Source: an uncultured Planctomycetia bacterium | GTDB taxonomy: Bacteria > Omnitrophota > Gorgyraeia > 1-14-0-20-64-10 | Assembly (NCBI GenBank): GCA_964373055.1 | Contig: CAYJTM010000002.1 | Coordinates: 1 to 53,421 of the forward strand | DNA length: 53,421 nt | Direction: 5' to 3' | Shown here: positions 10,396-32,235 of the stretch, piece by piece | How positions within the stretch are numbered: the stretch's first letter is position 1 | Layout of the letters: each line of letters starts with the position of its first letter | The notes under the pieces: generated by a model | Told to the model about the DNA's origin: nothing | Databases searched by the model: none | The model's input: only the letters and a program-made list of their open reading frames with translations | Made by a program: the position numbers and the translations under genes

Positions 10396-10407
10396 AGCGA
10401 GGAAAAG

Positions 10408-12581: not shown

Positions 12582-13918
12582 ATTTCGTTCCAATCACTGA
12601 GAACGATCGCAAGGTGATGCTCCGCGCCATCGGCGTCGGCTCGTTCGAGGAGCTGATCCAGAGCGTCCCGAAGCTCATCCCCCGCGCCAAACTGAATCTC
12701 CCCGCCGCCCTCTCCGAACCGGAGTTGCTGCGCCACTGCGGCGAGCTGGCCGCGCTCAACCAGGCGCCGGAGCCGGAGCGCTGTTTCCTGGGGGCGGGCG
12801 CCTATTCCCATTGGACTCCCAGCGTGGTTCGCTACATCACCTCCCGAGGCGAGTTCCTGACCGCTTACACCCCTTACCAGGCCGAGGCCTCCCAGGGAAC
12901 CCTGCAGGCGATGTACGAGTTCCAGAGCTTGCTGTGCGAGCTGACCGGCATGGATGTGGCCAACGCTTCCCTCTACGAGGGGGCGAGCGCGCTCGCGGAG
13001 GCCTGCCTGCTCGCGGCCCGGGAGACCGGCCGCTCCCGCGTGGTGGTCGCGCAGAGCCTCCATCCGGAATACCGGCAGACGGTCCAGACCTACTTGAAGC
13101 AATCCGGGATCCGGGTTGTGCTGTTGGAGGCCCGCCACGGGGCCGTGGACCCGCAGGCCGCGGCCGCCCAGGTGGATTCCGGCACGGCGGCGCTGGTCGT
13201 GCAGATGCCCAACGCCTTCGGCTGCCTGGAATCTGTCGAGGAACTTTCCGCCCTCGCCCACCGCCGCGGCGCCCTCTTCATCTCCGTGATCAATCCCATC
13301 TCTCTGGGGATCCTGCGGCCTCCCGGGTCCTACGGGGCCGACATCGCCGTCGGGGAAGGGCAGCCCCTCGGGACCGACCTGAACTACGGCGGTCCTTACC
13401 TGGGGCTGTTCGCCTGCCGCAAGGAGCTCCTCCGCAAGGTCCCCGGCCGGATCGTCGGCATGACCAAGGACGCGCACGGCCGCCGCGGGTTCACGCTGAC
13501 GCTGCAGACGAGGGAACAGCATATCCGCCGGGCCAAGGCCACCTCCAACATCTGCACCAACGAAGCGATGATGGCGCTGGGAGCGGCCGTTTATTTGAGC
13601 TCAATGGGGAAAGAGGGGTTCCGGGAGCTGGCGCTGCAGAACCTCCAAAAGGCCCATTATTGCCGCGACCGGCTCACCGAGATCCCCGGCGTTCGCCAGA
13701 TCTTCCCGGGATCTTTCTTCAACGAATTCGCGCTGGAGATGCCGGTGGATCCGGAGCGCGTGAACCGAAACCTGTTGAAGGAAGGGATCGTCGGCGGGTT
13801 CCCGCTCAAGCGGTGGGATCGCAATCTCACGAACGGCTGGCTGCTCTGCGTCACCGAGATCCACAGTAAGGCCGCCATGGACCGGTTTGTCCAGGTGGTC
13901 CAGAGGTCCCTGAAATGA
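12557..13918 (+). CDS. gcvPA: glycine dehydrogenase (decarboxylating) subunit 1
   Basis: FVPITENDRKVMLRAIGV..., TAYTPYQAE...QG. TTG at 12578, overlapping the gcvH stop, is an alternative start. Confidence 0.95.
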   Translation: MGQRRRALNFVPITENDRKVMLRAIGVGSFEELIQSVPKLIPRAKLNLPAALSEPELLRHCGELAALNQAPEPERCFLGAGAYSHWTPSVVRYITSRGEFLTAYTPYQAEASQGTLQAMYEFQSLLCELTGMDVANASLYEGASALAEACLLAARETGRSRVVVAQSLHPEYRQTVQTYLKQSGIRVVLLEARHGAVDPQAAAAQVDSGTAALVVQMPNAFGCLESVEELSALAHRRGALFISVINPISLGILRPPGSYGADIAVGEGQPLGTDLNYGGPYLGLFACRKELLRKVPGRIVGMTKDAHGRRGFTLTLQTREQHIRRAKATSNICTNEAMMALGAAVYLSSMGKEGFRELALQNLQKAHYCRDRLTEIPGVRQIFPGSFFNEFALEMPVDPERVNRNLLKEGIVGGFPLKRWDRNLTNGWLLCVTEIHSKAAMDRFVQVVQRSLK

Positions 13919-15423
13919 CCCCACAGACGATGATCAAGGAGTCGGTTGAGCCGTCGAAGACCCCCCATTCCCCCGGCCGGCTGCTGGAGCCCCTGCTCAA
14001 AGAGCTCAGCGAACCGGGCCGGCGCGCCTTCACGCTGCCGCCGCTGGACGTGCCCAAGCAAAAACCGGAGAACCTGTTGCCCCCTTCCTTGATACGCAAG
14101 GATCCGGCGGATCTTCCGGAGCTCTCCGAGCGGGATCTGGTGAAACATTTCATGCGGCTGGCCCACCTGAACTTCTCCGGCGAAACCAATTTCTACCCGC
14201 TCGGCTCCTGCACGATGAAGTACAACCCGAAGATCAATGAGGAGATCGCCGCTCTGCCCGGTTTCGCCAAGCTGCACCCGTACTCCTCTGAGGAGAGCAG
14301 CCAGGGGATCCTGAAGCTCCTGTTCGAGACGGAGCGGCTGTTCCGGGAGATCCTCGGCATGGACGCGGTGACGCTGCAGCCGGCGGCCGGCGCCCAGGGG
14401 GAGCTGACCGCGCTGCTCATGGCGGCTGCGTTCCACGAGGCGAAGGCCAAGCCCCGCCGCAAGGTGGTGGTCCCCGATTCGGCGCACGGCACCAACCCGG
14501 CCAGCGCCGCCATCGCCGGTTTCGAGGTGGTGGAGGTTAAATCCAATTCTCGCGGAAGAGTCTCCCTTTCCGCTTTGGCGGCCGCCATTGACGAGGATGT
14601 GGCCCTCTTCATGATGACCAACCCCAACACGCTGGGCCTCTTCGAAGAGGAGGTCCTGGAGGTGACGGCCCTCGTCCATGAGAAGGGGGCCCTCATGTAC
14701 CTCGACGGCGCCAACATGAACGCGCTGCTGGGGCTGCTGCGCCCCGGAGACATGGGCTTCGACATGGTCCACGTGAACATCCACAAGACCTTCTCGATCC
14801 CGCACGGCAGCGGCGGCCCGGGCGGCGGCCCGGTCGGCATCAAGGCGGCCCTAAAGCCGTTCCTGCCGGGACCGATTGTCGTCGAAAAAGAGGGCGCCTA
14901 CCGCCAGGAATCGCCCGGCCCCCTCTCGATCGGCCGGGTCCGATCCTTCACGGGCAACGTCGGGGCGACGGTCCGCGCCTACGCTTACATCCGTTCGCTC
15001 GGGGCGGAGGGCCTCAAGCGGATCTCCGAGGGGGCGATCCTGAACGCCAATTACCTCAAGGCGCTGCTCAAGGACGTCCTGCCGATGGCGGTGGATGAGC
15101 ACTGCATGCACGAGTTCATCGCGACGGCCAAAGAGCTCAAGCAACGCCACGGCATCAAGGCGATGGACATCGCCAAGCGCCTGCTCGATTACGGTTTCTA
15201 CGCGCCGACGATCTGCTTCCCGCTGATCGTGGAGGAGGCCTTGATGGTGGAGCCCTCCGAGACGGAATCCCGGCAGACGCTGGAGCAGTTCGCCGAGGCG
15301 CTCAAGGCGATCGTTCGGGAAGCCAAGGAGATCCCAAGCCGGGTGCAGAGGGCGCCGCACCGGATGCCGGTGGCCCGGCTGGACGAGGTCCAGGCGGCGC
15401 GCGAACCGAACCTGCGGTGGTGA
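13915..15423 (+). CDS. gcvPB: glycine dehydrogenase (decarboxylating) subunit 2
   Basis: PLGSCTMKYNP..., the PLP-lysine region NIHKTFSIPHGGGGPG, and a 4-nt overlap with gcvPA. Confidence 0.95.
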   Translation: MTPQTMIKESVEPSKTPHSPGRLLEPLLKELSEPGRRAFTLPPLDVPKQKPENLLPPSLIRKDPADLPELSERDLVKHFMRLAHLNFSGETNFYPLGSCTMKYNPKINEEIAALPGFAKLHPYSSEESSQGILKLLFETERLFREILGMDAVTLQPAAGAQGELTALLMAAAFHEAKAKPRRKVVVPDSAHGTNPASAAIAGFEVVEVKSNSRGRVSLSALAAAIDEDVALFMMTNPNTLGLFEEEVLEVTALVHEKGALMYLDGANMNALLGLLRPGDMGFDMVHVNIHKTFSIPHGSGGPGGGPVGIKAALKPFLPGPIVVEKEGAYRQESPGPLSIGRVRSFTGNVGATVRAYAYIRSLGAEGLKRISEGAILNANYLKALLKDVLPMAVDEHCMHEFIATAKELKQRHGIKAMDIAKRLLDYGFYAPTICFPLIVEEALMVEPSETESRQTLEQFAEALKAIVREAKEIPSRVQRAPHRMPVARLDEVQAAREPNLRW

Positions 15424-16154
15424 CGGGGTCCGCTCCCTCCGCCATCGAGGCGCAAAACCTCTCCAAGCATTTTACCTGCTCGGTCGGTTGGCTCAAGCGC
15501 AAGGCCCTCTGGGCGCTCCGTGAGGTCTCCTTCTCCGTGGCGCCCGGCGAGGCGTTCGGCCTGATGGGTCCCAATGGTTCGGGCAAGTCCACGCTGCTGA
15601 GGATACTCAAGGCCTTTTTCCTGCCCACAGCCGGACGGGCCTGGGTCTTCGGGACTCCCACCTCCGATGAGGGCCGGATCAAGCCGCTGATCGGCGTGGT
15701 CCCGTCCTCCTCCCTTGGGTTCGCCGGACGGCTCAACGCGTTCCAGAACCTGGAATTTTACGCCGTTCTTCAGGATGTTCCGCCGGGACAACTGCGGGCC
15801 CGCGTGCAGGGCCTGCTGGATCTGGTCGGCCTTTCCGAGTTGGGCGGTCAGCCGGTGTGGACCTATTCGACGGGCCAACGCCAACGACTGGGCATCGCCC
15901 GAGCACTTTTGGCGGATCCTCCGGTTCTTCTTTTCGACGAACCCACCCGCGGCCTGGACCCCTGGAAAGCCAGAGAAATCCGGAAATGGATTCGCGAAGA
16001 GCTTCTTATCCGAAAAAAAAAGACGTTGCTGGTGGCTACCAACCAGACAGAGGATGTCCGGCAGCTCTGCGACCGGGCCGGCATCCTCGAGCACGGTCGC
16101 CTGGTCTGGCAGGGGACCGCGGCGGAGGCGGAATTTGCGCGCTCTCCGGGCTAG
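15417..16154 (+). CDS. ABC transporter ATP-binding protein (ABC-2 exporter type)
   Basis: Walker A GPNGSGKST, signature YSTGQRQR, Walker B LLFDEPTRGLD. Overlaps the gcvPB stop by 7 nt. Confidence 0.9.
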   Translation: MVTGSAPSAIEAQNLSKHFTCSVGWLKRKALWALREVSFSVAPGEAFGLMGPNGSGKSTLLRILKAFFLPTAGRAWVFGTPTSDEGRIKPLIGVVPSSSLGFAGRLNAFQNLEFYAVLQDVPPGQLRARVQGLLDLVGLSELGGQPVWTYSTGQRQRLGIARALLADPPVLLFDEPTRGLDPWKAREIRKWIREELLIRKKKTLLVATNQTEDVRQLCDRAGILEHGRLVWQGTAAEAEFARSPG

Positions 16155-16965
16155 GCTCCTCGGTGAGGCCAGGGTTGCCGTGGCCTTCATGAAGCGGGAA
16201 TTGCTGGGCACCGGCCCGTGGAATTACGGCTTGGAGTCCTTGAATGGTTTGGTTGGCCTGTTTCTCCTGCAGTTCTTCGCCCGGTCCTTCCACGGGGCCG
16301 TGGGCGCCTTCTCCCAGGGAATGGATTATTTCACCTTCGGGCTCATCGGGTTGGTGCTGGCCCAGTCCATGCTGCGCGGGCTCTCGATGTTTTCCGAGAG
16401 GATGAGATTCCTTATGCTCTCCGGCACTCTGGAGAGCATCTGGGTGACCCGGCGTTCTTTTCCGGTTTTGCTGCTGTACGATAGTCTCTGGAGCGTCCTT
16501 TTTTGGAGCTTCAACGGGGTTTTGCTCCTGATCTTCGGCGCCGGCGTGCTGGGAGCCCATCTCAACGCCTCGCAGATCGCCGCGGTTTGGGGGATTGGCC
16601 TGATCACCTTCTTGTCCATGGGCTCGCTGGGGCTGCTCTCCGCGGCCACTCTTATTGTGTTGGGTCACAAGGCCGTCCGGCTGTGGGCTCCGGTAGGTCC
16701 CGCGATCCTCTTGATCAGCGGCAGTTTCTTCACGGCAAGCGTTTTCCCCTCATGGATGCAGGGGGTCATCGGATGGATCCCCTTGACCCATGCCCTGAAG
16801 CTGGCCCGCGGAACGGTCCTGCCCTTGGACCCGGGCGCCGCCGCCCGGGCCTGGGGCGCCCTGATCGGGCAGGGGATCCTGCTGGCGCTGCTGGGTTGGG
16901 CGGCGCTCCGCTGGGCCGTGCGCCGGGCCCGGTCCGACGGCCGGTGGGCCGCCGTTGCGTTTTGA
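16135..16965 (+). CDS. ABC-2 family transporter permease
   Basis: Six predicted TM helices. TTG at 16135 or ATG at 16189 could be the start. The upstream part of ORF 15715..16965 overlaps the ATPase and is rejected. Confidence 0.75.
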   Translation: MRALRARLLGEARVAVAFMKRELLGTGPWNYGLESLNGLVGLFLLQFFARSFHGAVGAFSQGMDYFTFGLIGLVLAQSMLRGLSMFSERMRFLMLSGTLESIWVTRRSFPVLLLYDSLWSVLFWSFNGVLLLIFGAGVLGAHLNASQIAAVWGIGLITFLSMGSLGLLSAATLIVLGHKAVRLWAPVGPAILLISGSFFTASVFPSWMQGVIGWIPLTHALKLARGTVLPLDPGAAARAWGALIGQGILLALLGWAALRWAVRRARSDGRWAAVAF

Positions 16966-16973
16966 GAGCTCTC

Positions 16974-17603
16974 ATGAGGTCCTGGCGCCTGATTATTGAC
17001 CCGCCGGGCGATCCGGCGGGGAACATGGCAGCCGACGAGGGGATTGCCCGCTTGGCTGTTGAAGAGGCCCGCCCGATCCTCCGGATTTACCGCTGGGACC
17101 GTTCGGCTGTCTCTCTGGGCCGGCGGCAGAAGAGGGAAGAGCTTTCCCTCTCAGTGATGGAAAACCGGCTGCCGGTGGTTTGGCGTCTGACCGGCGGGGG
17201 AGCGGTGTTTCATCGCCCGGATGAATTGACCTACGCCTTTTCAGCTTCCCGGAGCTTGCTTCCTCCCGGTATCCCTTTAAGGGAGATTGCCTGCTTCCTG
17301 CATCGGCGATTGCGGGAGACGGCTGTTGCCCGGGGATGGGTGAACGGGGCGGATCTTTCGCTTGCCGGGGCCGATCCGGCCGGACCGGCGCCGTTCTGTT
17401 TCTCAGCGCCGGCCCGCGGCGATCTCATCTACCAGGGCAGGAAGGTAGCCGGTTCCGCTCTCCGGGTATGGAACGATAGGATCCTGCTCCAGGGTTACCT
17501 TCAAGGGTTGCCCCTCCGGTATGACCAGGCGCTTGAGGTGTTCGTGCTGGCCGCGGAAAGAGGTTTCAGGCATGAAGAAGCTTTACAGCTATCACATTCA
17601 TAA
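16974..17603 (+). CDS. lipoate-protein ligase family protein (BPL_LplA_LipB domain)
   Basis: NMAADEGIA...LRIYRW...AVSLGRRQ...RLTGGGAVFH..ELTY...GRKVAGSA. Sits downstream of the lipoyl-dependent gcv genes. Confidence 0.85.
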   Translation: MRSWRLIIDPPGDPAGNMAADEGIARLAVEEARPILRIYRWDRSAVSLGRRQKREELSLSVMENRLPVVWRLTGGGAVFHRPDELTYAFSASRSLLPPGIPLREIACFLHRRLRETAVARGWVNGADLSLAGADPAGPAPFCFSAPARGDLIYQGRKVAGSALRVWNDRILLQGYLQGLPLRYDQALEVFVLAAERGFRHEEALQLSHS

Positions 17604-18513
17604 CACCTTGTTCCAAAGTGAGTTTTCCATTCCGGCTTTGGCCGGTGCTTCGGTTGCTGGAGGGAATGCCCGGCAACGCGTCCGGTTCCGGGAAAGAAGG
17701 TTCCGGGTCGAGGCGCCGCGTCACGGATGGTTGCGTGTGCGGGGGCTTTTCTACTGGGCCCCTCCCCGCGGCCGGTTTGCCGTTCTCCGGTCCCCTTTCA
17801 TCGGCGATTTCAAAGTCAGCTTCTCGGAGAGGACCATTGATTGGAACCCGTCCCGGCAGAACTCCCGGCAACTGGCTTGCGTGATCGCGAGCGGGCGGGC
17901 TCTCAGTCTTCTTCTCCCTCACCTCAAACCCTGTCTTGTGTTGCACGCCGTGGGGCTCCAGCTCCGCCGAAAGGCGGTCCTGTTCGTCGCGCCAAGCGGC
18001 GGCGGGAAATCCACCTTGGCGGCGAGTTTTCTCAACGAAGGCCATCCGCTCGTTTGCGAGGACATCGCGGTCATCCGCAAGGGAAGGAACGGTTTCCTCT
18101 TGGAACCGGGAGTGCCCCAAATCCGGCTCTGGCCGCGGGCGGCCAGAAGGTTGTCTAAGCTCAGGAAGGGGAATCGTCTCTATCCCGAGACGGTCAAAGA
18201 GTTCTTCCTTCTGGATCGCCAGGGCTCGTGGCGGTTCAGGGCGTCGGCGGCGCCGGTGGCGGCGGTCTATTTCCTCTCCCGGAGCATGAAGAGGGAGGTC
18301 CGGATCGATCCGCTTAAACCCAAAGAGGCCCTCTTTCATTGCATGGATCACCGCCATTCCCCGCTTTCCCAAGGTTCCCGGATAGACGGCCGGCAGTTCG
18401 CGATTGCAAGCGAGCTGGTCCAGAACGTCCGGGTGAAGCGCTTGGTCTATCCCTCCGGTTTCGCCCGCCTTCCCGACGTCCGCCGGGCGGTTCTGGCCGA
18501 TTTGGATGCTTAG
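17572..18513 (+). CDS. HPr-kinase-related (HprK-like) P-loop kinase, lasso-peptide tailoring type
   Basis: P-loop FVAPSGGGKSTLAASF. Position at the head of the lasso cluster. Overlaps the upstream gene by 32 nt. Confidence 0.8.
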   Translation: MKKLYSYHIHNTLFQSEFSIPALAGASVAGGNARQRVRFRERRFRVEAPRHGWLRVRGLFYWAPPRGRFAVLRSPFIGDFKVSFSERTIDWNPSRQNSRQLACVIASGRALSLLLPHLKPCLVLHAVGLQLRRKAVLFVAPSGGGKSTLAASFLNEGHPLVCEDIAVIRKGRNGFLLEPGVPQIRLWPRAARRLSKLRKGNRLYPETVKEFFLLDRQGSWRFRASAAPVAAVYFLSRSMKREVRIDPLKPKEALFHCMDHRHSPLSQGSRIDGRQFAIASELVQNVRVKRLVYPSGFARLPDVRRAVLADLDA

Positions 18514-19786
18514 AGAGCCGGTTCTTAATCCGGAGGATCAGCTTCTTGTTTCTTGCGGGCGTCCCGCTTTTGATGAGGCGGTTTTCTCCCGGCTCTGTTC
18601 CGAAGTCCGCGATTGGGACGCCCTTCTCCGGAAGGCCGCCCGCCACCGCGTGATCCTTCGGCTCCACGCTTTCTTAAAACAAATAGGGGCCGGAGGAATC
18701 CTCGAACCGGCCGCCTGGCGGAAGATCGAGGAGGTTTCCCGCCTAACTCAATTCCGCGTCATGGCCCTGGAAGCGGAGCTTTCGGAAACCCTGCTGCCCC
18801 GGTTCAATCAGGCCGGTATCGAACCGCTCTTGCTCAAGGGTCTCGCCCTCAATCGGACGGTTTATGCCGGGAAACCTTGCCGCTCCTTTAAGGATCTCGA
18901 CCTGTTGATCCATCCCAATGAGGCGGGGCGGGCTCGCTCTGTCCTGGAAGGCCTGGGATATCAGGAAAAACAGGACTCTCATTTTCCCAGCCGCTGGCAC
19001 GAGCGGGTCCTTTCGCCGCTGCTTCCTCAGAATGCCATTTCTTTCTTTCATGCTGAGCGGAGGGTCCCCGTGGATCTCCATCTCGAACCTTTTGGGGAGG
19101 ATGCCCCGGTGCGCTGGGAACCGGACTGGCTCTGGAAGGAGGCGCGGCCCGTTCCGGTGGGGGATTCCTCCGCTTGGATCCCTCACCCGGACCGGCTCTT
19201 CCTGCATCTGCTGTTTCACCTGGCCAAGCACATCGGCCGGCGCCAGAACTTCTTGGGCTGGTACCTCGATCTGGATGAATGCCTCCGGTATCCGGGGGGA
19301 GTCGGGGAAGGGGATTTCTGCCGGGCGGAGATCGAGAAACAGCCGGTTGCGGGGGAAGCTTTTCAGATCCTGGGTTTTCTCCAAACACATTTTGAAACCC
19401 CGTTGTCTTTCCCGTTGAAGGAAGCCATCCGCGCGCGGAGGATTCGGCCTCTTCCTTTGGAGCAGCTTTTCCTTCCGGAAGAGACGCTGGACATCTCCAC
19501 GTTTTCCGACGGCGGCTGGATCGACCGCCGGGAAACCTTCTTTTCTTATTGGGACCGCGTGCCGGGCTGGGGGGCGAAGACCTGGTTCCTTTTGAGATGG
19601 ATTTTCCCGGACGGGTTCTACTTTGAAGCCAAATACCCTCCCTTCCGAACGCCAAGCCAGAAACTCCGGACCTATGCCAAACACTTCCGCGCCCTCCTTT
19701 ACAAGGGGTTTTATCTTCTGCGCTATTGCCTGGATCGGAAAAAGAGCTATACTGAACACCAGCATGCCTCCCAAAGTCCGGGTTGA
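18506..19786 (+). CDS. uncharacterised nucleotidyltransferase family protein (PF14907-like)
   Basis: EPLLLKGLALNRTVY...RSFKDLDLLIHPNEAGRARSVLEGLGY motif. Overlaps the kinase gene by 8 nt. Confidence 0.8.
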   Translation: MLREPVLNPEDQLLVSCGRPAFDEAVFSRLCSEVRDWDALLRKAARHRVILRLHAFLKQIGAGGILEPAAWRKIEEVSRLTQFRVMALEAELSETLLPRFNQAGIEPLLLKGLALNRTVYAGKPCRSFKDLDLLIHPNEAGRARSVLEGLGYQEKQDSHFPSRWHERVLSPLLPQNAISFFHAERRVPVDLHLEPFGEDAPVRWEPDWLWKEARPVPVGDSSAWIPHPDRLFLHLLFHLAKHIGRRQNFLGWYLDLDECLRYPGGVGEGDFCRAEIEKQPVAGEAFQILGFLQTHFETPLSFPLKEAIRARRIRPLPLEQLFLPEETLDISTFSDGGWIDRRETFFSYWDRVPGWGAKTWFLLRWIFPDGFYFEAKYPPFRTPSQKLRTYAKHFRALLYKGFYLLRYCLDRKKSYTEHQHASQSPG

Positions 19787-20051
19787 GTTCTCGAAGAAGG
19801 TGATGGGGAAGAAACTTGAGGGGGAGTGGGTTTTTCTCCATCTTGAGAACGGAAAATATTACGGCTTGAATGAGACCGGGAGTCTTGTCTGGGATGAGAT
19901 CAGGGAGAAGAAAGATCCTGAAGAGGCCGTCGCCCGCCTTCAAACCGTTTATCAATTGGAACGCCGCCAGGCGGAGAAAGACGTCCGGGATCTCTTGAAG
20001 GAGCTCGAGAGAGAGGGCCTGATCCGGGTTGAGCATTCCGAAAACGCTTAG
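19764..20051 (+). CDS. PqqD-family lasso peptide chaperone / RRE (B1)
   Basis: WVFLHLENGKYYGLNETGSLVWDEI, about 95 aa. ATG at 19764; an alternative ATG is at 19803. Confidence 0.85.
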   Translation: MPPKVRVEFSKKVMGKKLEGEWVFLHLENGKYYGLNETGSLVWDEIREKKDPEEAVARLQTVYQLERRQAEKDVRDLLKELEREGLIRVEHSENA

Positions 20052-20433
20052 GGCAGTTCTTCGATTCTCGCCGGCCGAACGAATCGCGATTCTACTCGCC
20101 TATGCATTCCTCCTGAAGGCCCGTCTTCTCCTTATCTTCTGTTCTCGGTCCGTGGTGGAGGAAGCTGTCTCCGCTTCGCCCTCGCTGCGCCGGCCCAGGA
20201 GCGGGTTTTCCCAAAGGGAGTTGGACGCTCTCTTCCGCATCGCCTGGCGATACCAGTTCCCATGGCCGAAATGCCTTGTCACCGCGCTGGCCCAGCGGTT
20301 TTTCCTTGCCCACTACGGCCATGCCGTCTCCTTCAAGATCGGCGTCCAAAAGAATGAGGGGAGATTCCAGGCCCACGCCTGGTGCGGAGACAGGGAACGT
20401 CCCTACGTTCCGCTGGAGGCGCCGAGCTCATGA
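20029..20433 (+). CDS. lasso peptide biosynthesis B2 protein (transglutaminase-like leader peptidase)
   Basis: FPWPKCLVTALAQRFFL...GV....RFQAHAW, giving a Cys/His catalytic pair. Confidence 0.9.
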   Translation: MSIPKTLRAVLRFSPAERIAILLAYAFLLKARLLLIFCSRSVVEEAVSASPSLRRPRSGFSQRELDALFRIAWRYQFPWPKCLVTALAQRFFLAHYGHAVSFKIGVQKNEGRFQAHAWCGDRERPYVPLEAPSS

Positions 20434-22316
20434 GCGGGATCGGCGGGGTTTTCCACGCGGACGGCTCCCCGGCGGACCGGGCGCTGCTGGAAAGAATGCG
20501 GGAGATCATCGATCACAGGGGCCCCGACGGCGCCGGCTTCTGGATGGACGGGAATGTCGGTCTTGTCCACCGGCTTCTCCGCAACACCGAGGAATCGGTT
20601 TCCGACCAGCAGCCGATGACAAACGGCCGCGGCCTCTGGATCACGGCCGACTGCCGGATCGATAACCGGGAGGAGCTCAAGCAATCCTTCGAATCAAAAG
20701 GCCTCTGGAGGGAAATGCAGAAGCTCTTCAACGGCCGGCCGATTCCCGATTCCGCTTTTATCCTCTTTGCTTATGAACTTTGGGGGGAAGATTCCCCTAA
20801 CCACCTCTTGGGCGACTTCGCCTTCGCCGTTTGGGATCAGCCCCGCCAAGCACTCTTCTGCGCCCGGGATCAAATTGGGATTAAACCTTTCAACTACCAC
20901 TGGAACGGAAGGAAGTTTCTCTTCGGGACAGAGATGAAGCAGGTTTTTCAGGATCCCAGCCTTTCCAGAGACCTAGACCTCTATTATCTTTCGGATCTGC
21001 TTGCGATGAACTTCCCGAACCGGGAACAGACCCCCTATGAGGCGGTCCGGAGACTGCCGCCGGCCCATTGCCTGAAGATTCGCGGGGGAAACTTTAACGT
21101 CAAACGTTACTGGCATTGGAACCCGGATTCCGAATCTTTGTCGAAATCAAGCTGCGAGGAAAACGCCGGTGTTTTTCTTTCCCTATTCACACAGGCGGTC
21201 CAGGCAAGGTTGCGGACGGTTTCGGGATACCGAACAGGTTCCTTGCTGAGCGGCGGCCTCGATTCCTCATCCATTGTGTCGGTCGCGGCGCTAGCGGGGG
21301 ATTCGGAAGCTGGTTTTCCGGTATTCAGCCTCTCCTGCCCGGAAGCCAATCCGGAGTATCAACTCAAAAACTATGATTTCGCGGATGAAGCCGTTTACCG
21401 GAAAGCGCTGATTGAAAAATACCGATTGGAAGCCCATGAGATAGAGATCGCGGGCCGAAGCCCCTTCGAAAATTTAAAAAAAAATATCTGGCATCAGGAA
21501 ATCCCCCTCTTTTCTCCTGGTTTCAACTCTTACGGACCCCTCTGCCGGGCTATCCAAGAGGCCGGCGTGCGGATCCTTTTGGACGGAAACGGCGGAGATG
21601 AAATGTTTCACGTTCGCCCGCCCCGTTCGTTCAAAGAACTCCGTGGACGCGCTCGGATGACTGCTTGGATCCCTGAAAGGATAAAGGCTTTTTACCGCCG
21701 AGGTTTCCGGGATGTCCTGCCGCGCGCTATACGAAAGGGGTGGGCTAAAAAGTTTTCCTTGAGGAGCCGGGTGCTCCGGGATTTCGGTTGGGATTTCCCC
21801 TCCCGAGGGTCTTCTTCTTTTGGTATCTTGCTTTTATTAAAGAGGGGTTATCATGCGACCTGGCTCGAGACGGTGGACCGAGGAGCCGCTGCCGCCCGAT
21901 ACGAAGTCCGGTTTCCCTTTCTTGACAGGAGACTCCTGCGGTTTTCCGCCACGTTGCCGTTGGACCAAAAAGTCCGGGGAGAGGTTAAGAAAGTTTTATT
22001 GCGTCAAGCGTTAAGGGGGCATCTTCCCCCCGCTACGTGCGGCCGCTTAAAAAAGTCGGAATATAGTCCAGCTGTGCGCGTAAGCCTCGAGCGGTACGCC
22101 CAAGAACCCATTCGGGCCCTGTTCAGAAACCCTCATTTTCTTGTTCGGGAAATGGTCGATGTTGAGAAGCTGAGGAAGGCCAGTCCTGTGGGCAGTTGGT
22201 TTTTTTGGCATGTCTTGAGCCTCGATCAGTGGCTCAAAAACAGGGAAGATTTTTTTGAAAAACCCAAGGAGAGTTTCTATGAAACAGAGGTCGCTTCCTC
22301 GTCAAGCGCGGGATAG
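20430..22316 (+). CDS. asparagine-synthetase-like lasso cyclase (C)
   Basis: MSGIGGVFHADG N-terminus and a SLLSGGLDSSSIV PP-loop. ATGA overlap with B2. Confidence 0.9.
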   Translation: MSGIGGVFHADGSPADRALLERMREIIDHRGPDGAGFWMDGNVGLVHRLLRNTEESVSDQQPMTNGRGLWITADCRIDNREELKQSFESKGLWREMQKLFNGRPIPDSAFILFAYELWGEDSPNHLLGDFAFAVWDQPRQALFCARDQIGIKPFNYHWNGRKFLFGTEMKQVFQDPSLSRDLDLYYLSDLLAMNFPNREQTPYEAVRRLPPAHCLKIRGGNFNVKRYWHWNPDSESLSKSSCEENAGVFLSLFTQAVQARLRTVSGYRTGSLLSGGLDSSSIVSVAALAGDSEAGFPVFSLSCPEANPEYQLKNYDFADEAVYRKALIEKYRLEAHEIEIAGRSPFENLKKNIWHQEIPLFSPGFNSYGPLCRAIQEAGVRILLDGNGGDEMFHVRPPRSFKELRGRARMTAWIPERIKAFYRRGFRDVLPRAIRKGWAKKFSLRSRVLRDFGWDFPSRGSSSFGILLLLKRGYHATWLETVDRGAAAARYEVRFPFLDRRLLRFSATLPLDQKVRGEVKKVLLRQALRGHLPPATCGRLKKSEYSPAVRVSLERYAQEPIRALFRNPHFLVREMVDVEKLRKASPVGSWFFWHVLSLDQWLKNREDFFEKPKESFYETEVASSSSAG

Positions 22317-22446
22317 GGGTAAAAAGGGAAGGTACATTCCCCCCTCTCTGGTTCGTTATGGGAATCTAAAGAAAATCACGCTAGGGCTATCGCCGGAGGG
22401 CCCTGAGGACAATCCAACTCCTTGGATCGGGACGATGTATTCGTAA
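22279..22446 (+). CDS. lasso peptide precursor (A): 35-aa leader plus 20-aa core GLSPEGPEDNPTPWIGTMYS
   Basis: AAGGAGA RBS lies 7 nt before the ATG. The leader YIPPSLVRYGNLKKITL fits YxxPxLxxxGxxxxxTx exactly. Core has Gly1 and Glu8/Asp9. C-terminal Ser. Confidence 0.8.
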   Translation: MKQRSLPRQARDRGKKGRYIPPSLVRYGNLKKITLGLSPEGPEDNPTPWIGTMYS

Positions 22447-22468
22447 CAAGCCTGTCCAGCAATAAGGC

Positions 22469-23755
22469 ATGAAAGTTCTTTACACGCCTTGCCGTTTTAT
22501 ACCGCGCCCGGTCGGGGGCGGAGATATTCATGTCCAATCCCAAGCGGAAGTTTTAAGAGAGCGAGGGGTGACGGTGGTGGGGGCTTTCCCGGGCGCGTCC
22601 CCTGCTGAGGCTGTGAAGGATTTCGCGGGAATTCTTGAGAAGGAACGGCCTGACATCGTCCATTTTTTTAGCTTCAAGCCGGATCTTTCCGTTCCATTCC
22701 TTCGGGAGGCGAAGCGGCGGGGACTCCCCACCGTTTTTAGCTACATCAGCGCGGAGACGGGCTGCGGGCGGAAAACCCTCTTGCGGTGGGGAAAAGAGCC
22801 CTGCTCAAGCATTTTTAATCTGGATCTTTGCGTTTCCTGCGCACTCCACGGTCACGGCCTGCCGCGGATTGTTTCCGGGCTGGTAGGACGAACTCCGGTG
22901 AGGATCGGTTCCTCTCTGAGAAGGATGAAGATACTCGGAAAAGCAGGAACAGCCCTTCGGATGCGGGCGCAGATTCAGGCGAGCCAGCAATCCTTCAAAG
23001 CTTTTCTTGACGGGGTGGATCATGTTGTCGCTTCAGCGGAATGGGCGAGGGTTCTTCTGCTTAGAAACGGGGTTCAGCCGGATAAGATTACTTTGTCCCG
23101 CGTTGGAATCCCTCACAATGTACCCGCTCCGTCCGTTCAAGCGAAGGAGATCACGTTGCCGCTTCGCGTCGCGATGGTGGGGCGGCTACACCCGCAAAAA
23201 GGGTTTCATATTCTCATTCCTGCTTTGCGTCGGGAGCCCAGGCTTAAGATTAAATTAGATATTTTTGCCTCGTTTGCTCAGGATGTCGGGTCACGCGGGT
23301 TAAGATTTCTGCAGAAGTTCTCCGGAAATGATTTCCGCATCAGATTCCATCCCTTGCCGATGCCCATAGATAAGCTCTCCAGCCTTTTGAAAGATTATGA
23401 CGCGCTTGCGGTGCCTTCGCAGTGGCTTGAGACGGGACCTCTCGTCGTCTTGGAATCCTTTGCCGCGGGAACACCGGTGATCGGCTCTCGCTGGGGGGGG
23501 ATTTCAGAATTGATAAAGGACGGCGTGAATGGCCTGCTTGTGGATTCGCCGCACCGGATTGAATCTTGGCAAGCGGTCTTACGAAGAATTTGCGCTGAGC
23601 CCAATCTCCTTGAGGATTTGAGAAAAAATATTCTCCCTCCCCGTACGATGAATGAGACGGCCGAAGAAATAGAGGGCGTCTATCGCCGGCTGCTTTTTGG
23701 AAGAAAGCCGTTATCAACGAGTTCTTGCAGCAGCGCGGCGCCGGCCACCCGATGA
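22469..23755 (+). CDS. glycosyltransferase, GT-B fold (GT4-like)
   Basis: C-terminal GSRWGGISELIKDGVNGLLVD (EX7E-type region). Starts 23 nt after the precursor stop. Confidence 0.85.
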   Translation: MKVLYTPCRFIPRPVGGGDIHVQSQAEVLRERGVTVVGAFPGASPAEAVKDFAGILEKERPDIVHFFSFKPDLSVPFLREAKRRGLPTVFSYISAETGCGRKTLLRWGKEPCSSIFNLDLCVSCALHGHGLPRIVSGLVGRTPVRIGSSLRRMKILGKAGTALRMRAQIQASQQSFKAFLDGVDHVVASAEWARVLLLRNGVQPDKITLSRVGIPHNVPAPSVQAKEITLPLRVAMVGRLHPQKGFHILIPALRREPRLKIKLDIFASFAQDVGSRGLRFLQKFSGNDFRIRFHPLPMPIDKLSSLLKDYDALAVPSQWLETGPLVVLESFAAGTPVIGSRWGGISELIKDGVNGLLVDSPHRIESWQAVLRRICAEPNLLEDLRKNILPPRTMNETAEEIEGVYRRLLFGRKPLSTSSCSSAAPATR

Positions 23756-24930
23756 CCTTTCTGATTCCAATGAGCCCCATCGCCCAATCTTAATTTCCCT
23801 TGGATGGATTCTTCCGAAACGATTCGATCGGGAATGCTGGCGATAAACGGGATGCCCGTTTGCGCGAAGATTTTCCCAAAGTGGTCTCTCGAGGGGCCTT
23901 CGCTGACGGTAAAGGCGACCATCGGTGTTTCGCCGACCCTGTCTTTAATCCTGCCGATAATCTGCCGCGTTACCTCAAAGGATTCTCGATAGGGCCCGAA
24001 GTTGAGGCCTTGTTTTTCGATGTCATTTTCTACCGTGTAAATTTTACCGATCTTGGCAAGGCGAACAAGGTTTTGTCGAGACATAACGATTAAGCGATAG
24101 GCCAGCCTTGAGCGGAGCGCCAAGAAATAAACGGTTTCGCCGAAATTTCCAGGATACCGATACGACACCGTGCCCTTTGTGTCGTAATAAGGCCGGACCA
24201 TCGGGTGATTCTCAAAGCAGCTCTTAGATCCTAATTCCCAATGATTATTAATGAAATCATTGGCGCACACTTGCAGCAGGATCAGATCCGGTTTAATTCT
24301 ATCCAGGTATTTGTCGATCACAAAAAATTCCTGCAGCGTTCCGTACCCCGTCCCCCCGTAAACAAAGAGTTCTGCGCCGAGTTCGTTTTTAAGCGTTTCG
24401 TAATACATGGCGGGGCTGCCTCCCGCCGTAAAGGAATCTCCTACAATAAAGATCTTGAGCCGTTTTGTTTCCGGGTCGCCGAAATATTTTTTTCCGGACC
24501 AGCCCAAGAGGTCATCTCGGTAGAGGCTAATGGATTTGTGCAGCGGGATATCCCAGCGGAATGAATCGTAGAAACGAACGAAGAGTTCTCCTCCCACGCA
24601 GAGCGCTAAGAGGGTTGACATGAAAACCGCCGCGCGGACCCGGAACCCTACCTGCCGGCGCCCCCTGTGTTTTAAAAGATAGACGACGAGGAAACCCAGG
24701 GCCAGCATCCATGCGGTCCAGAAAAGAAAAGAAAACCACAGGGTATCCCCGATTCTCAAATAGGTCTCCAGCGGAGAGGAGGTGTTTTGATCAATGAACC
24801 GGTTGAGGACGCTGAGAGATTGCCTGCGGTAGATGGATCCGATGAGGAAACGGCCCCAAAGAGGGTAGGCCGTGATAAGAACGAAGCCGAAGACGAGGAA
24901 GGATAATCGGATCAGTCCCGCTGGTTTCAT
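23680..24930 (-). CDS. membrane-anchored SGNH/GDSL-like hydrolase or acyltransferase
   Basis: N-terminal TM helices, block I IFIVGDSFTAGG, and a C-terminal DGAHWNQKGH. ATG at 24930 (ORF track start 24990). Confidence 0.7.
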   Translation of the reverse strand: MKPAGLIRLSFLVFGFVLITAYPLWGRFLIGSIYRRQSLSVLNRFIDQNTSSPLETYLRIGDTLWFSFLFWTAWMLALGFLVVYLLKHRGRRQVGFRVRAAVFMSTLLALCVGGELFVRFYDSFRWDIPLHKSISLYRDDLLGWSGKKYFGDPETKRLKIFIVGDSFTAGGSPAMYYETLKNELGAELFVYGGTGYGTLQEFFVIDKYLDRIKPDLILLQVCANDFINNHWELGSKSCFENHPMVRPYYDTKGTVSYRYPGNFGETVYFLALRSRLAYRLIVMSRQNLVRLAKIGKIYTVENDIEKQGLNFGPYRESFEVTRQIIGRIKDRVGETPMVAFTVSEGPSRDHFGKIFAQTGIPFIASIPDRIVSEESIQGKLRLGDGAHWNQKGHRVAGAALLQELVDNGFLPKSSRR

Positions 24931-25068
24931 CGTTGCGCCCCCCTGCGAAATCCCTTTTCCTCCCCGTGCTTCCCGGGGTATCCTCTTCATGGGCAGTTCT
25001 TTCTTTGCTGATGTCCGTCAACTGTTTCCAGGATAACCCTAAAGCCGGCGGATTTCATCCTGGAAAAG

Positions 25069-25287
25069 ATGGAACCGGAGGAAAAGTTGAGGCGGGTCCT
25101 TCTGAAAGTGGGCCACTTCCAGTCCTCTCTTTTGCTCTGCCTGATCTACCTCGTGCTTTGGGTTCCTGTTGGGCTACTGTCGTTCCTGTTCGCGGACTGG
25201 CTCCGCCGGCGCAGGCCGGCCGCGTCGGCCTGGCTTCCTCGGAATCCCCGCTTGAACCTGCCAGAGCACGCGAAAGAGCCCTACTGA
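25069..25287 (+). CDS. small membrane protein preceding carbamoyltransferase (SxtJ-like position)
   Basis: 72 aa with one or two TM helices. Ends 2 nt before the carbamoyltransferase ATG. The family assignment is uncertain. Confidence 0.45.
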   Translation: MEPEEKLRRVLLKVGHFQSSLLLCLIYLVLWVPVGLLSFLFADWLRRRRPAASAWLPRNPRLNLPEHAKEPY

Positions 25288-25289
25288 GG

Positions 25290-26999
25290 ATGTACCTTCT
25301 CGGCCTTTCCTGTTTCTACCACGATGCAGCGGCGGTGATCTTGCGCGACGGGCTGCTGATCGCCGCAGCGGAGGAGGAACGTTTCTCCCGAAAGAAGCAT
25401 GACAGCGGATATCCGCAGCAGGCGATCCGGTTTTGCTTGGCCCGAGCAGGGATCACGGCGCAGGACCTCGACGGCGTTGTTTTTTATGAGAAGCCCCTCG
25501 TTAAGTTTGAGCGAATCATCAAGACCACCCTGCAAACGATCCCCCGGTCCGCCAAGCTCTTCCGATCCGCTATGGGCAGCTGGCTCGTGGATAAGCTTTG
25601 GATCGAGGAGATCATCCGGGCGGATTTGGGGGTTTCGCCGGATAGGATCTTTTTTGCCGACCACCATCAGTCCCACGCCGCCAGCGCTTTCTACTGCTCC
25701 CCCTTTGATTCCGCCGCTGTGCTGACCATCGACGGTGTAGGGGAGTGGGCCTGCGGGTCGATCGGCTTAGGGCAGGGTTCCCGCCTGACCCAGAGCCGGG
25801 AGATCCGCTTCCCGCATTCCCTGGGGCTTCTCTACAGCACTTTCACGGCCTTTCTGGGGTTTGAGGTGAACGAGGGGGAGTACAAGGTAATGGGGATGGC
25901 CGCCTACGGGATCCCCCGGTACACCGAGGAGGTGCGGAAGATCCTAAAGGTGTACGCGGACGGATCCCTCTGGCTGGATCTGAGATACTTCGCGTTCCAC
26001 CATTCCACCGACCGCAGCTTCAGCCGAAAGTTCACGGAGGTGTTCGGCCCTCCCCGAGACCCGAAACGGTCGGAGGACCTGGACCCGAAATACTGCGACA
26101 TCGCTGCCAGTATCCAGAAGGTGACCGAGGAGGTGGTCGTGGCGATGGCGCGCCAGGCCTTGCGGGAGACGGGCCAGGAGCGTCTCTGCTACGCGGGAGG
26201 GGTGGCGCTCAACAGCGTGGCGAACTGGCGGATCCTGCAGGAGACTCCGGTAAAGGACCTGTTCATCCAACCGGCAGCGGGGGACTCCGGTGGGGCCTTG
26301 GGGGCCGCCCTCTACCTCTATCACCATGTTCTGGGGAACCCCCGGCGGTTCGTGATGGATCATGCCTACTGGGGAGCGGACAGCTCGCCGGCTCAGGTGG
26401 AGGAGTTTCTGCGGTCGGAGAATATCCGGTATGAGCCGCTTGGGCGGCTGGATGCGCTGGTGGACCGGACCGTCGGCCTGCTGACGGAGGGCAAGGTGGT
26501 GGGATGGATGCAGGGAAGGTTCGAGTGGGGGCCCCGGGCGTTGGGCAACCGCTCGATTTTAGCGGATCCCAGACGCGCGGAGATGAAGGAGATCGTCAAC
26601 CGGAAGATCAAGTTCCGGGAACCGTTCCGTCCGTTTGCCCCTTCTGTCCATTCGGAAGCCGTGGGGGATTATTTCGAATTGCCCGAGAATGCCCGATGGC
26701 CGGCCCGGTTCATGCTGGTTGCGCCTCCCGTGAGGGCGCAGCGGCGGTCGGAGATCCCGGCGGTGACGCATGTGGATGGGACCGGACGGGTGCAATGGGT
26801 GGAGGAGTCGGAGAATCCGCTCTACGGTCGGCTGATCCGGCGATTTGGGGAGGCAACGGGGGTTCCGGTGGTGCTCAACACCTCTTTCAATCTGAAAGGC
26901 GAGCCGATCGTGAACACGCCGGCCCAGGCCCACTCCGCATTCATTCGCTCCGATATGGACGGCCTGGTGATGGCTCACTGCCTGGTGACGAAGGAATGA
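25290..26999 (+). CDS. carbamoyltransferase (NodU/CmcH family)
   Basis: MYLLGLSCFYHDAAA..., HHQSHAASAF, GGVALNSVAN, NTSFNLKGEPIV. The N-extension from 24933 is rejected. Confidence 0.92.
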   Translation: MYLLGLSCFYHDAAAVILRDGLLIAAAEEERFSRKKHDSGYPQQAIRFCLARAGITAQDLDGVVFYEKPLVKFERIIKTTLQTIPRSAKLFRSAMGSWLVDKLWIEEIIRADLGVSPDRIFFADHHQSHAASAFYCSPFDSAAVLTIDGVGEWACGSIGLGQGSRLTQSREIRFPHSLGLLYSTFTAFLGFEVNEGEYKVMGMAAYGIPRYTEEVRKILKVYADGSLWLDLRYFAFHHSTDRSFSRKFTEVFGPPRDPKRSEDLDPKYCDIAASIQKVTEEVVVAMARQALRETGQERLCYAGGVALNSVANWRILQETPVKDLFIQPAAGDSGGALGAALYLYHHVLGNPRRFVMDHAYWGADSSPAQVEEFLRSENIRYEPLGRLDALVDRTVGLLTEGKVVGWMQGRFEWGPRALGNRSILADPRRAEMKEIVNRKIKFREPFRPFAPSVHSEAVGDYFELPENARWPARFMLVAPPVRAQRRSEIPAVTHVDGTGRVQWVEESENPLYGRLIRRFGEATGVPVVLNTSFNLKGEPIVNTPAQAHSAFIRSDMDGLVMAHCLVTKE

Positions 27000-27178
27000 G
27001 CCGCCGGATTGATTCTCTGGCAGGACGGTTCCGGGTGGTCAGGTCGATTTTCCGTTTTCTCTGGCGGGAGCGTCTCTGGTGGATGATCCCGCTAATGGCG
27101 GTCCTCTTGATATTCGGAGCTCTGCTGCTCTTTGCCCAACAGAGCGCTTTGGCCCCGTTCATCTACACCCTCTTTTGA
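26996..27178 (+). CDS. DUF5989-family small membrane protein
   Basis: ATGA overlap with the carbamoyltransferase. C-terminal ...QSALAPFIYTLF is typical of this family. Confidence 0.8.
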   Translation: MSRRIDSLAGRFRVVRSIFRFLWRERLWWMIPLMAVLLIFGALLLFAQQSALAPFIYTLF

Positions 27179-27201
27179 ACACCGCGCCAAACCCGTTGGT
27201 T

Positions 27202-27861
27202 TCATTGTTGCGTCGCCCCTGTCTTTAGGAACGACAGGAAGCTCGGTTCAGAGCGGAACCACCCCGCGAAAGCTGTCCTTGGAAAGCTTCCGGTCACCCG
27301 GGTCACCCGGTGCTCCAGCTTATTGCTGATTCGGAAAAGGACGGCATCTCCGGAAGCGATGTTGGCCACTTCGCTCAAAGTTTTTTTTGAATTCTGATCT
27401 CGAATCTGAAGGACCCCTCCCTCATAGGGTTCCCGGCCGAGGTTGATCGAAAATCCGAACATTCTGTGCTTGCCCACATCATTGTGCCAATCCAGCTGTC
27501 CTTCGGAAGGGATAAGTTGGTAGAGCCTTCCTGTGAAATTTCGGATTGGACCGGAGCCCGCGATCTTTTCAATCACTCGGAAGAGGGCCGGATCATTCAG
27601 CAAAAAGAAAAAAAATCCAACGGTCCGGCTGTCTTCGAAATACAATTCTTCCCCGATCTGTTTGTAAGATTTTTTTGTGCCGCTTAATTCCTTAATCTGA
27701 CCCTGAAGAGTTTGGAGGAGGGGGAGGGAAAGGAACTGAGGGATCTGAACGCAATGATCGCGTTGAAAGGTTCTGGAGAAATCGCGCAGGTTTTTCTTCG
27801 CGGGCAGAAAGAAACTTCCGTCTTCTTGAACTTGCAAGGAAACCAAAGAAGCCCTCAGCAT
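27202..27861 (-). CDS. 2OG-Fe(II) oxygenase superfamily protein
   Basis: DWHND...(x)...LEHRV, a His-x-Asp...His facial triad pattern in a cupin-like region. Confidence 0.65.
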   Translation of the reverse strand: MLRASLVSLQVQEDGSFFLPAKKNLRDFSRTFQRDHCVQIPQFLSLPLLQTLQGQIKELSGTKKSYKQIGEELYFEDSRTVGFFFFLLNDPALFRVIEKIAGSGPIRNFTGRLYQLIPSEGQLDWHNDVGKHRMFGFSINLGREPYEGGVLQIRDQNSKKTLSEVANIASGDAVLFRISNKLEHRVTRVTGSFPRTAFAGWFRSEPSFLSFLKTGATQQ

Positions 27862-27928
27862 TACGGCCGACGGGGATTCATGAAGTCATTTTACCGGAGG
27901 AATAGGAGGAAGGCGATTCAAAAATAAA

Positions 27929-28045
27929 CTCGGGCGACGACCTACTCTTCCGTTCAGTTACTCAGGCTTTACCATCGGCCCTGGGAGGCGTAACGGTCGT
28001 GCCCGGAATAGGGAAGGCATTCCAGTTGGGACCAATTTGGGTTGA
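27929..28045 (-). pseudogene. degenerate 5S rRNA-like segment (3' about 100 nt), overlapping the sulfatase-like gene 3' end
   Basis: The minus strand reads ...GGTCCCAACTGG..TTCCCTATTCCGGGCACGACCGTTACGCC..GGCCGATGGTA..GGAAGAGTAGGTCGTCGCCCGAG, resembling the 5S consensus. The 5' helix I partner and helix IV pairing are absent. Confidence 0.3.
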
Positions 28046-30890: not shown

Positions 30891-31007
30891 ATAAAGAAAT
30901 ACCGACGCGAGCTCGATGAGGTCAACCCTCTTTCGCGGTTGCCACCCCTTAACCGGTGTCAGGGCAATGTTCCCTCCTCGCCTTCAGTTTGAACTCTCGT
31001 CACCCTG

Positions 31008-32153: not shown

Positions 32154-32235
32154 GTATTGTATTATAGATATTTATTTCTATTTTGCAATCAACAAAACCG
32201 AGGATCTGACGCGGCTACTGTGGGGGGTGAGGGAG

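Follow-up and report, generated by a model that had tools for sequence, protein, structure and literature searches.

A predicted class II lasso peptide precursor in a kinase- and nucleotidyltransferase-containing operon of an Omnitrophota-like bacterium

Operon and precursor gene

The DNA analysed here is a stretch of 53,421 nucleotides (contig CAYJTM010000002.1 of assembly GCA_964373055.1, from an uncultured bacterium placed by GTDB in the Omnitrophota), referred to throughout as the window. Between 17572 and 23755 it carries seven genes on one strand, in the order K-N-B1-B2-C-A-GT4, with neighbours upstream of A overlapping by 4-40 nt. Our subject is gene A, a short open reading frame (ORF) which a first-pass annotation, made from the sequence of the window, had read as the precursor of a lasso peptide. 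That reading is supported by the operon context, by a family model scoring above its cut-off, by the position directly after the cyclase gene C, and by one diverged orthologue, such that the ORF is almost certainly a genuine lasso precursor. That it is also a maintained gene whose product is processed by the K-N-B1-B2-C-A-GT4 operon we consider highly probable. The genes of the operon are listed below.

17572..18513, + strand: K, HprK-like P-loop kinase of 313 amino acids; weak matches to Pfam Hpr_kinase_C (PF07475, E 0.0018) and to TIGR04352/04355
18506..19786, + strand: N, NTP_transf_5 nucleotidyltransferase of the PsmN type, 426 amino acids (PF14907, E 3.8e-40)
19764..20051, + strand: B1, PqqD-like recognition element (RRE) for RiPPs, peptides made on the ribosome and modified after translation, 95 amino acids (PF05402, E 1e-18)
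20029..20433, + strand: B2, transglutaminase-like leader peptidase, 134 amino acids (PF13471, Transglut_core3, E 9e-14; NF033537, 53.9 bits against a cut-off of 33)
20430..22316, + strand: C, lasso macrolactam cyclase, 628 amino acids (Asn_synthase, PF00733, E 2e-43, plus GATase_7/6; PP-loop SGGLDSS)
22279..22446, + strand: A, precursor peptide gene, 55 codons plus stop (NF033521 above cut-off; orthologue P0035)
22469..23755, + strand: glycosyltransferase (GT) of the GT4 family, a candidate tailoring enzyme with N-terminus MKVLYTPCRFIPRPVGGG (Glycos_transf_1, E 1e-21; Glyco_trans_4_4)

The product of A is MKQRSLPRQARDRGKKGRYIPPSLVRYGNLKKITLGLSPEGPEDNPTPWIGTMYS. Its gene fills the gap between the lasso cyclase and the next gene, which begins 22 nt after the stop codon of A, and its start codon lies 38 nt inside the cyclase ORF, whose end is at 22316; the coordinates thus agree with the overlap given in the first-pass annotation. 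The ribosome-binding site named there is likewise present, although its distance of 7 nt was counted to the A of the ATG and the true spacer is 6 nt. The codon list contains no in-frame ATG, GTG or TTG between M1 and the leader motif. The leader was said to fit the pattern YxxPxLxxxGxxxxxTx, and residues Y19, P22, L24, G28 and T34 do occupy positions -17, -14, -12, -8 and -2, with Gly1 of the core beginning at nt 22384, as claimed. The core lacks Cys and the peptide therefore belongs to class II. The parts of the precursor gene are as follows.

22266..22272, + strand: Shine-Dalgarno sequence AAGGAGA, followed by the spacer and the ATG at 22279-22281
22279..22332, + strand: N-terminal basic leader extension MKQRSLPRQARDRGKKGR, 18 amino acids with 8 K/R and 1 D/E; codons 1-13 overlap the end of the cyclase gene, in the +1 frame
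22333..22383, + strand: conserved leader motif YIPPSLVRYGNLKKITL, the predicted B1/RRE binding site, with B2 cleavage predicted after L-1
22384..22443, + strand: predicted core GLSPEGPEDNPTPWIGTMYS, 20 amino acids
22408..22410, + strand: Asp9 codon, favoured macrolactam acceptor of a predicted Gly1-Asp9 ring of nine residues
22441..22443, + strand: Ser20 codon (S55, the last residue), putative phospho-acceptor, invariant in P0035

Across the six frames of the 53-kb window, the strict motif Y..P.L...G.....T. was observed once, against an expectation of 0.033 occurrences when the window was resampled 300 times under a first-order Markov model; none of the resampled sequences (0/300) matched the motif together with G/A/S/C at +1, D/E at 7-9 and a nearby stop. 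Searches of NCBIfam at E<=1 returned two models for the precursor, NF033521 and NF033528, of which the former (lasso_leader_L3) covers residues 19-38 over its full model length at 20.8 bits, above the curated cut-off of 19. Its position directly after C is shared with an NCBI-annotated paeninodin-family cluster and with related metagenomic clusters. Some kinase clusters carry a precursor upstream of the kinase, and no second precursor was found at that position in the window; the small ORFs there were rejected as frame artefacts within an LplA-like gene.

The enzymes encoded around A retain most of the expected catalytic residues. In alignment A1 (query 17569-18510, whose numbering is used for K), H126, the P-loop GKSTL146-150 with its Lys at K147, and D165 are invariant, and BLASTP aligned K with the kinase of a Priestia plasmid cluster, assigned by NCBI to the paeninodin family, at 26% identity over 207 amino acids (E 4e-17). 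An AlphaFold model of K (pLDDT 83.7) matched the PEPCK and HprK/P folds in Foldseek, whilst sequence searches of K and N against the PDB were uninformative. K111, G112 and D130-x-D132 of N are invariant among five aligned lasso-cluster homologues (PsmN itself stands outside this alignment). C82 and H116 of B2 are invariant among its own homologues. B1, for which the start was taken from the gene call in contig L010, matches the lasso PqqD models of NCBIfam at E 5e-17 and 5e-15, both under the curated cut-offs, and C reaches 424 bits with the lasso cyclase model NF033535, under its cut-off of 525.

An exhaustive phmmer search with the peptide yielded a single true homologue, P0035 (MRRRSNPDPSKPEDKKRYEPPALIRYGDLKEATKGGAPSGEMDNPDPWIGTFYS; 56% identity, E 5.9e-10); three further candidates (P0034, P0036 and P0037), being long and repetitive, were set aside as spurious. 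P0035 lies on a 607-bp contig, L020, with ~70% DNA identity to the window, and the sample that yielded this contig also holds a kinase 82% identical to K. On L020 the start of P0035 lies 44 nt inside the cyclase 3' end, again in the +1 frame, a ribosome-binding site (GAGGAGGA; AAGGGGG in a further related contig, L021) precedes the ORF, and a GT4 N-terminus (VKVLCVPCRFLARPIGGG, against MKVLYTPCRFIPRPVGGG in the window) follows it directly. Because this N-terminus is conserved on L020, we place the start of the window GT4 at 22469 and not at the gene caller's equivalent of 22574. Outside the overlap, A and P0035 differ with pN 0.275 and pS 0.689, and 14 codons for identical residues differ synonymously. 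Since P0035 retains the cyclase overlap, the downstream GT4 and a pN/pS of about 0.4, the ORF appears to be maintained. This answers, for one pair of sequences, the refuting condition set in the first-pass annotation, an ORF not kept across homologous clusters. Three other assemblies likewise have a gene call for A, but their DNA is 100% identical to the window and they therefore add nothing on conservation. Other searches extended the family no further: in a word-indexed protein search the peptide retrieved nothing but its own sequence, back-translated peptide patterns gave 55 pattern matches and 0 relatives among JGI metagenome contigs, and the best cyclase matches in GTDB representative genomes (Proteobacteria, Contendobacter, Deinococcus and Rhodoferax metagenome-assembled genomes, MAGs) reached 27-33% identity, with no close genome.

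Could the ORF instead be a chance frame, or the remnant of a decayed cluster that makes no product? Several observations point that way and weigh against the precursor reading. B2 is unusually short, with a 14-column gap relative to four homologues right after H116-A-W; the operon holds no ABC_membrane-type exporter (D), with only an ABC-2 pair upstream at 15417-16965; and the atypical GC content and adjoining toxin-antitoxin genes described below indicate that the locus may be a recently acquired, possibly silent island. The number of diverged orthologues, one, with the other three copies identical, also weighs against the main reading. Set against these are the motif statistics, the NF033521 match, a frame kept with mostly synonymous change, and catalytic motifs that are preserved in N, B2 and C and, but for Glu164, in K; pseudomycoidin, moreover, is made even without B1/B2 (PMC6993621). 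Chance or decay is thus very improbable, and we continue with A as a lasso precursor gene. Neither a promoter and terminator scan of 16.8-25.2 kb, which gave nothing above shuffled expectation, nor Rfam, which returned no RNA family in the locus, added further elements.

Leader, predicted ring and tail

Between A and P0035 the leader keeps R, Y, PP, L, RYG, LK and T unchanged. At the predicted cleavage site, T34-L35|G36, Thr at -2 and Gly at core position 1 are likewise invariant. The YxxP element has a role in RRE binding (PMC13381572). Ahead of the motif, the N-terminal segment that the first-pass annotation had called unusually basic is indeed so, and the four closest relatives share the feature: basic stretches of similar kind, 17-21 amino acids long and starting inside the cyclase gene, are found in P0035, L001/L022 and L021, and are absent from more distant relatives and from Bacillota precursors. 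In the four closest clusters the precursor start lies 38-44 nt inside the cyclase 3' end and always in the +1 frame (window 22279-22316; L001 9809-9852; L020 365-408; L021 1757-1800), whilst the more distant clusters L002, L003 and L017 show no C/A overlap. It is reasonable to consider the extension as a candidate second docking site for tailoring enzymes.

The core shared by A and P0035 is conserved at G1, P4, G6, D9, N10, P11, P13, W14, I15, G16, T17, Y19 and S20, and both peptides end in the tail DNPxPWIGTxYS, terminal Ser included. Glu8 and Asp9 both lie within the 20-residue core, in agreement with an acidic residue at 7-9 in a core of ~15-24 residues, and the first-pass annotation had left open which of the two closes the macrolactam. 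Of these alternatives Asp9 stood, being invariant in P0035, and Glu8 did not, as P0035 has Met at position 8 (and Ala in place of Ser3). Because Asp9 is the shared acidic residue and Glu8 is not conserved, we strongly favour a predicted nine-residue Gly1-Asp9 ring, on the evidence of one orthologue.

An eight-residue ring closed at Glu8 is the alternative. Eight-residue rings are common among lasso peptides, the residue is present in the core, and in L001 and several distant relatives the first acidic residue stands at position 8. The loss of Glu8 in the orthologue, in which Asp9-Asn10-Pro11 is invariant, argues for the larger ring, and paeninodin likewise has a ring of nine residues closed at position 9. 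The same holds for pseudomycoidin, the ring of which closes at position 9 with nine residues (PMC6993621). We therefore regard closure at Glu8 as improbable and retain the Gly1-Asp9 ring. As for the threaded part, both residues proposed as steric plugs, Trp14 and Tyr19, are invariant in P0035, and a conserved tail containing Trp14 and Tyr19-Ser20 is compatible with a predicted loop and plug region.

Kinase target and sugar tailoring

Tailoring kinases of this kind carry a catalytic His-Lys-Asp-Asp motif (PMC9266682), and PadeK, ThcoK, SyanK and PsmK act on the linear precursor, placing phosphate on its C-terminal Ser (PMC9266682; PMC6993621). By analogy with paeninodin and pseudomycoidin, Ser20 of the window precursor is probably phosphorylated. 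Homologues of K are few, 32 in an index of 5.8 billion proteins; contigs were recovered by exact look-up and a metagenome scan. In most contigs where both cyclase and precursor could be located, a precursor of the form YxxPxL...G...T lies directly after the cyclase, the exception being L016. In L016 a sulfotransferase gene (8975-9907) stands directly after the kinase, and the candidate precursor (ORF end 11275) ends in ...GYAAS.

The same contigs supply evidence that weighs against Ser20. Precursors encoded beside distant members of the kinase clade mostly lack a C-terminal Ser and only a few end in one; their C-termini include ...QASC, ...TPSC, ...HHKSG, ...DGKSG, ...GAGGF, ...GSGAT, ...GSGGV and ...GGVGL. 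Three further points tell in the same direction. K has Glu164-Asp165 where its relatives have Asp-Asp, the first Asp being Glu also in its 82% relative, P0003; the leader has YxxP (Y-I-P-P), whereas paeninodin-like leaders nearly always have WxxP (PMC13381572); and in a non-lasso RiPP the HprK-like kinase LppK, with an NTP transferase as its partner, places the phosphate on Ser3 of the linear core (PMC13381572). Given the varied C-termini of the clade, the Ser3 target of LppK and the near-universal WxxP of paeninodin-like leaders, we hold phosphorylation of Ser20 at moderate confidence.

The precursor may thus be a lasso precursor whose kinase acts on Thr17, Tyr19 or Ser3, or the kinase clade may have another role altogether. 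Beyond the evidence already given, in many precursors beside its more distant members a Ser stands 2-5 residues from the C-terminus (...ASC, ...PSC, ...KSG, ...GSGAT, ...GSGGV, ...GGSQPV), and Thr17 and Tyr19 are, like Ser20, invariant in the orthologue. Ser20 is nevertheless kept in the only close orthologue, where Ser3 is replaced by Ala; the lasso-cluster kinases studied experimentally act on a C-terminal Ser (PMC9266682; PMC6993621); and the precursors of the two Bacillota K-containing clusters that we read end in Ser, with WxxP leaders. A different target or role is accordingly rather unlikely, and Ser20 remains our preferred acceptor. On the sequences compared, the C-terminal-Ser rule holds for the window and its orthologue and not across the kinase clade, and the published rule may be restricted to a sub-clade.

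Whether a sugar is added as well is more tentative. PsmN is needed for the addition of a hexose to the phosphate of pseudomycoidin, and one cyanobacterial cluster with a canonical GT has been noted (PMC6993621); combinations of K, N and a GT were also found in Butyrivibrio lasso clusters by genome mining (PMC7533575). By analogy, glycosylation of the window peptide by N, by GT4 or by both is quite possible, and the gene arrangement suggests that GT4, perhaps with the 2-oxoglutarate (2OG) oxygenase listed here, acts on the peptide.

27202..27846, - strand: 2OG-Fe(II) oxygenase (PF13640, E 1.4e-10), a possible cluster member 5 kb from the precursor

Against this, GT4 could serve cell-envelope glycan synthesis instead. 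It and the downstream genes (GDSL/SGNH, carbamoyltransferase, DUF5989, 2OG oxygenase and sulfatase) would then be unrelated envelope or polysaccharide genes, and the product would carry no more than a phosphate, or what N alone adds. GT4 enzymes are generic; the best NCBIfam matches of the window GT4 are of the exopolysaccharide (EPS), lipopolysaccharide (LPS) and MshA type and fall far under the cut-offs; tblastn detected no GT4 homologue in the other kinase loci; and the genes beyond GT4 lie on mixed strands. Yet GT4 stands close behind the precursor on its strand, and on L020 this gene likewise comes after the orthologous precursor, whilst in L002 a GT of another family (GT41, with tetratricopeptide repeats, TPR) occupies the same slot after A. 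The reported co-occurrence of K, N and GT in lasso clusters (PMC7533575; PMC6993621) also argues for a link, as does a 2OG oxygenase homologue of 44% identity that lies directly beside the kinase in L021 (2893-3531, - strand). An unrelated set of envelope genes is thus a substantial possibility, held below the level of a preferred reading, and we keep GT4 as a candidate tailoring enzyme. The 2OG oxygenase is a possible candidate hydroxylase of the Pro-rich core.

Other genes were noted around these and related precursors. Between GT4 and the 2OG oxygenase, positions 23680-27178 of the window hold a gene for a GDSL/SGNH-like protein (- strand), a 66-amino-acid ORF (25087-25287), the carbamoyltransferase gene (25290-26999) and the DUF5989 gene (26996-27178). 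The TPR/GT41 (OGT-like) glycosyltransferase gene of L002 spans 13017-14744 directly after the precursor, and a PMT_2-like protein is encoded ahead of the kinase at 8426-9988. PrmA/PRMT5_C-like methyltransferase genes lie inside kinase-containing lasso operons of L001 (6935-7870; the same in L022) and L017 (6859-8004); these operons include one from a Nitrospira MAG, and their predicted cores contain Arg. To our knowledge, no PRMT-type lasso tailoring enzyme has been described.

From these observations we infer the following pathway, all chemical steps of which are inferred, a point that itself counts against the full reading. Translation of A would probably be coupled to that of C, a coupling suggested by the precursor start codon lying, here and in the closest clusters, within the end of the cyclase gene. 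As expected from family knowledge, B1 would bind the YxxPxL leader motif through its RRE and hand the precursor to B2, which would cut after Thr(-2)-Leu(-1) and so free Gly1. The ATP-dependent cyclase would then link the Gly1 amine to the side chain of Asp9, the ring residue indicated by the single orthologue, and the tail NPTPWIGTMYS would pass through the nine-residue ring, held by candidate plugs at Trp14 and in the Met-Tyr-Ser stretch at the C-terminus. The HprK-like kinase would most likely phosphorylate the C-terminal Ser20 on the linear precursor, and, purely by analogy, the PsmN-like nucleotidyltransferase, GT4 or both may then put a sugar on the phosphate. The product would, on the same analogy, have a phospho-glycosylated C-terminus resembling that of pseudomycoidin. 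Calculated [M+H]+ values are 2129.948 for the dehydrated core, 2209.915 and 2289.881 with one and two phosphates (+79.966 each), 2371.968 with a phosphate and a hexose (+162.053), and 2412.994 with a phosphate and a HexNAc.

Genomic setting and relation to known systems

The flanks of the operon carry Gram-negative functions (OEP, AsmA, copper efflux and a gcvT-H-PA-PB operon), and GcvPB is 73-78% identical to proteins of Candidatus Omnitrophica MAGs, a single marker by which the host is tentatively assigned to the Omnitrophota. From ~19400-33800 the GC content is 0.50-0.56, against 0.62-0.66 in the flanks, with an exception at 25.4-27.2 kb. This low-GC stretch covers most of the lasso operon, GT4, the GDSL, 2OG oxygenase and sulfatase genes, split chromate-transporter genes and an AAA_14/DUF4143 ATPase gene, together with two features near its end.

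32235-32317, - strand: tRNA-Leu(CAG), within the low-GC stretch
33030-33833: AbiEii toxin, forming an AbiE-type toxin-antitoxin pair with an upstream ORF of 209 amino acids

Around tRNA-Leu and the low-GC stretch, the only att-like direct repeats were short pairs expected by chance, and no integrase was found. Elsewhere in the window, metal-resistance genes at 2639-7609 (a P-type ATPase with HMBD, an outer-membrane efflux protein and a multicopper oxidase with a C-terminal HMBD) are followed at 8605-10905 by genes for a cation-efflux protein, a DsbD-like protein and a peroxiredoxin. A tmRNA gene at 38863-39271 has a long predicted tag peptide, AKNMVKGIAPVVPMRPAVVPMALAA, and tRNA-Pro, tRNA-Arg and tRNA-His lie within 46475-47809.

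Compared with paeninodin-type clusters (represented by Priestia aryabhattai pB2.3; PadeA and PadeK of Paenibacillus dendritiformis themselves stand outside the alignment), the window shares a class II precursor directly after the cyclase, split B1/B2 proteins, an HprK-like kinase, and a precursor that ends in Ser and has an acidic residue at position 9. The gene order differs, being C-A-K-B1-B2-D in the paeninodin type and K-N-B1-B2-C-A-GT4 in the window, as does the leader, which has WxxP in the former and YxxP with the 18-residue basic N-terminal extension in the latter. The operon of the window also lacks an MsbA-type exporter, has Glu-Asp for Asp-Asp in its kinase and belongs to a Gram-negative host, probably one of the Omnitrophota; its precursor has no match to the NCBIfam paeninodin family at E<=1 and no similarity to paeninodin in the core. 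Pseudomycoidin (PsmA/K/N of Bacillus pseudomycoides) resembles the window in combining a kinase, an NTP_transf_5 protein and a C-terminal Ser, and its phosphate and hexose on the terminal Ser are the outcome that we predict for the window from its genes (PMC6993621); the canonical GT4 right after the precursor sets the window apart.

Three further systems resemble the window in part. The HprK-like kinases of the ThcoA/ThcoK and SyanA/SyanK systems, which make polyphosphorylated lasso peptides and are compared by description, act on the C-terminal Ser of dissimilar precursors, one proteobacterial example among them (PMC9266682), and no GT or N is reported as essential there. Clusters for linear polyphosphorylated peptides (LPP; Popov et al. 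2026, PMC13381572) have in common with the window a YxxP leader, a discrete RRE, a kinase of the HprK-like type and an NTP transferase, but encode an SpI-like signal peptidase, lack B2 and C, and carry the phosphate on Ser3, whereas the window has both B2 and C and its Ser3 is not conserved. Predicted Butyrivibrio clusters (PMC7533575), again compared by description, place K (HPr kinase), N and a GT beside lasso core genes as the window does, although their hosts are Bacillota and they have GT2/EpsH instead of GT4. Judged by its leader and by the family model, the window precursor falls outside the paeninodin family narrowly drawn, but it probably works like paeninodin and pseudomycoidin. The locus is an uncharacterised addition to the known class II lasso peptides associated with a kinase and a nucleotidyltransferase, and not a new type of system.

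We found no paper describing a lasso peptide from the Omnitrophota. A bolder proposal, which we offer as a long shot, is that this is the first lasso peptide of an Omnitrophota-like uncultivated lineage, in which a dedicated GT4, perhaps with the 2OG oxygenase and the carbamoyltransferase, would extend the C-terminal phospho-Ser into a phospho-glycan tail acting as the lower steric lock, with the basic leader extension as a second recognition element for tailoring enzymes apart from the YxxP site.

Taken together, this analysis leaves the general picture of lasso biosynthesis unchanged. The known lasso peptides that carry a phosphate, or a phosphate with sugar, are only a handful, from Bacillota and Proteobacteria. 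The present operon is compact, has seven genes and comes from a distant lineage that is uncultivated; with a defined precursor, a predicted ring and calculated masses, it lends itself to asking whether the sugar-phosphate tail is the work of N, of a canonical GT or of both. That the C-terminal-Ser rule fails across the wider kinase clade is relevant to the rules by which genomes are mined for such peptides.

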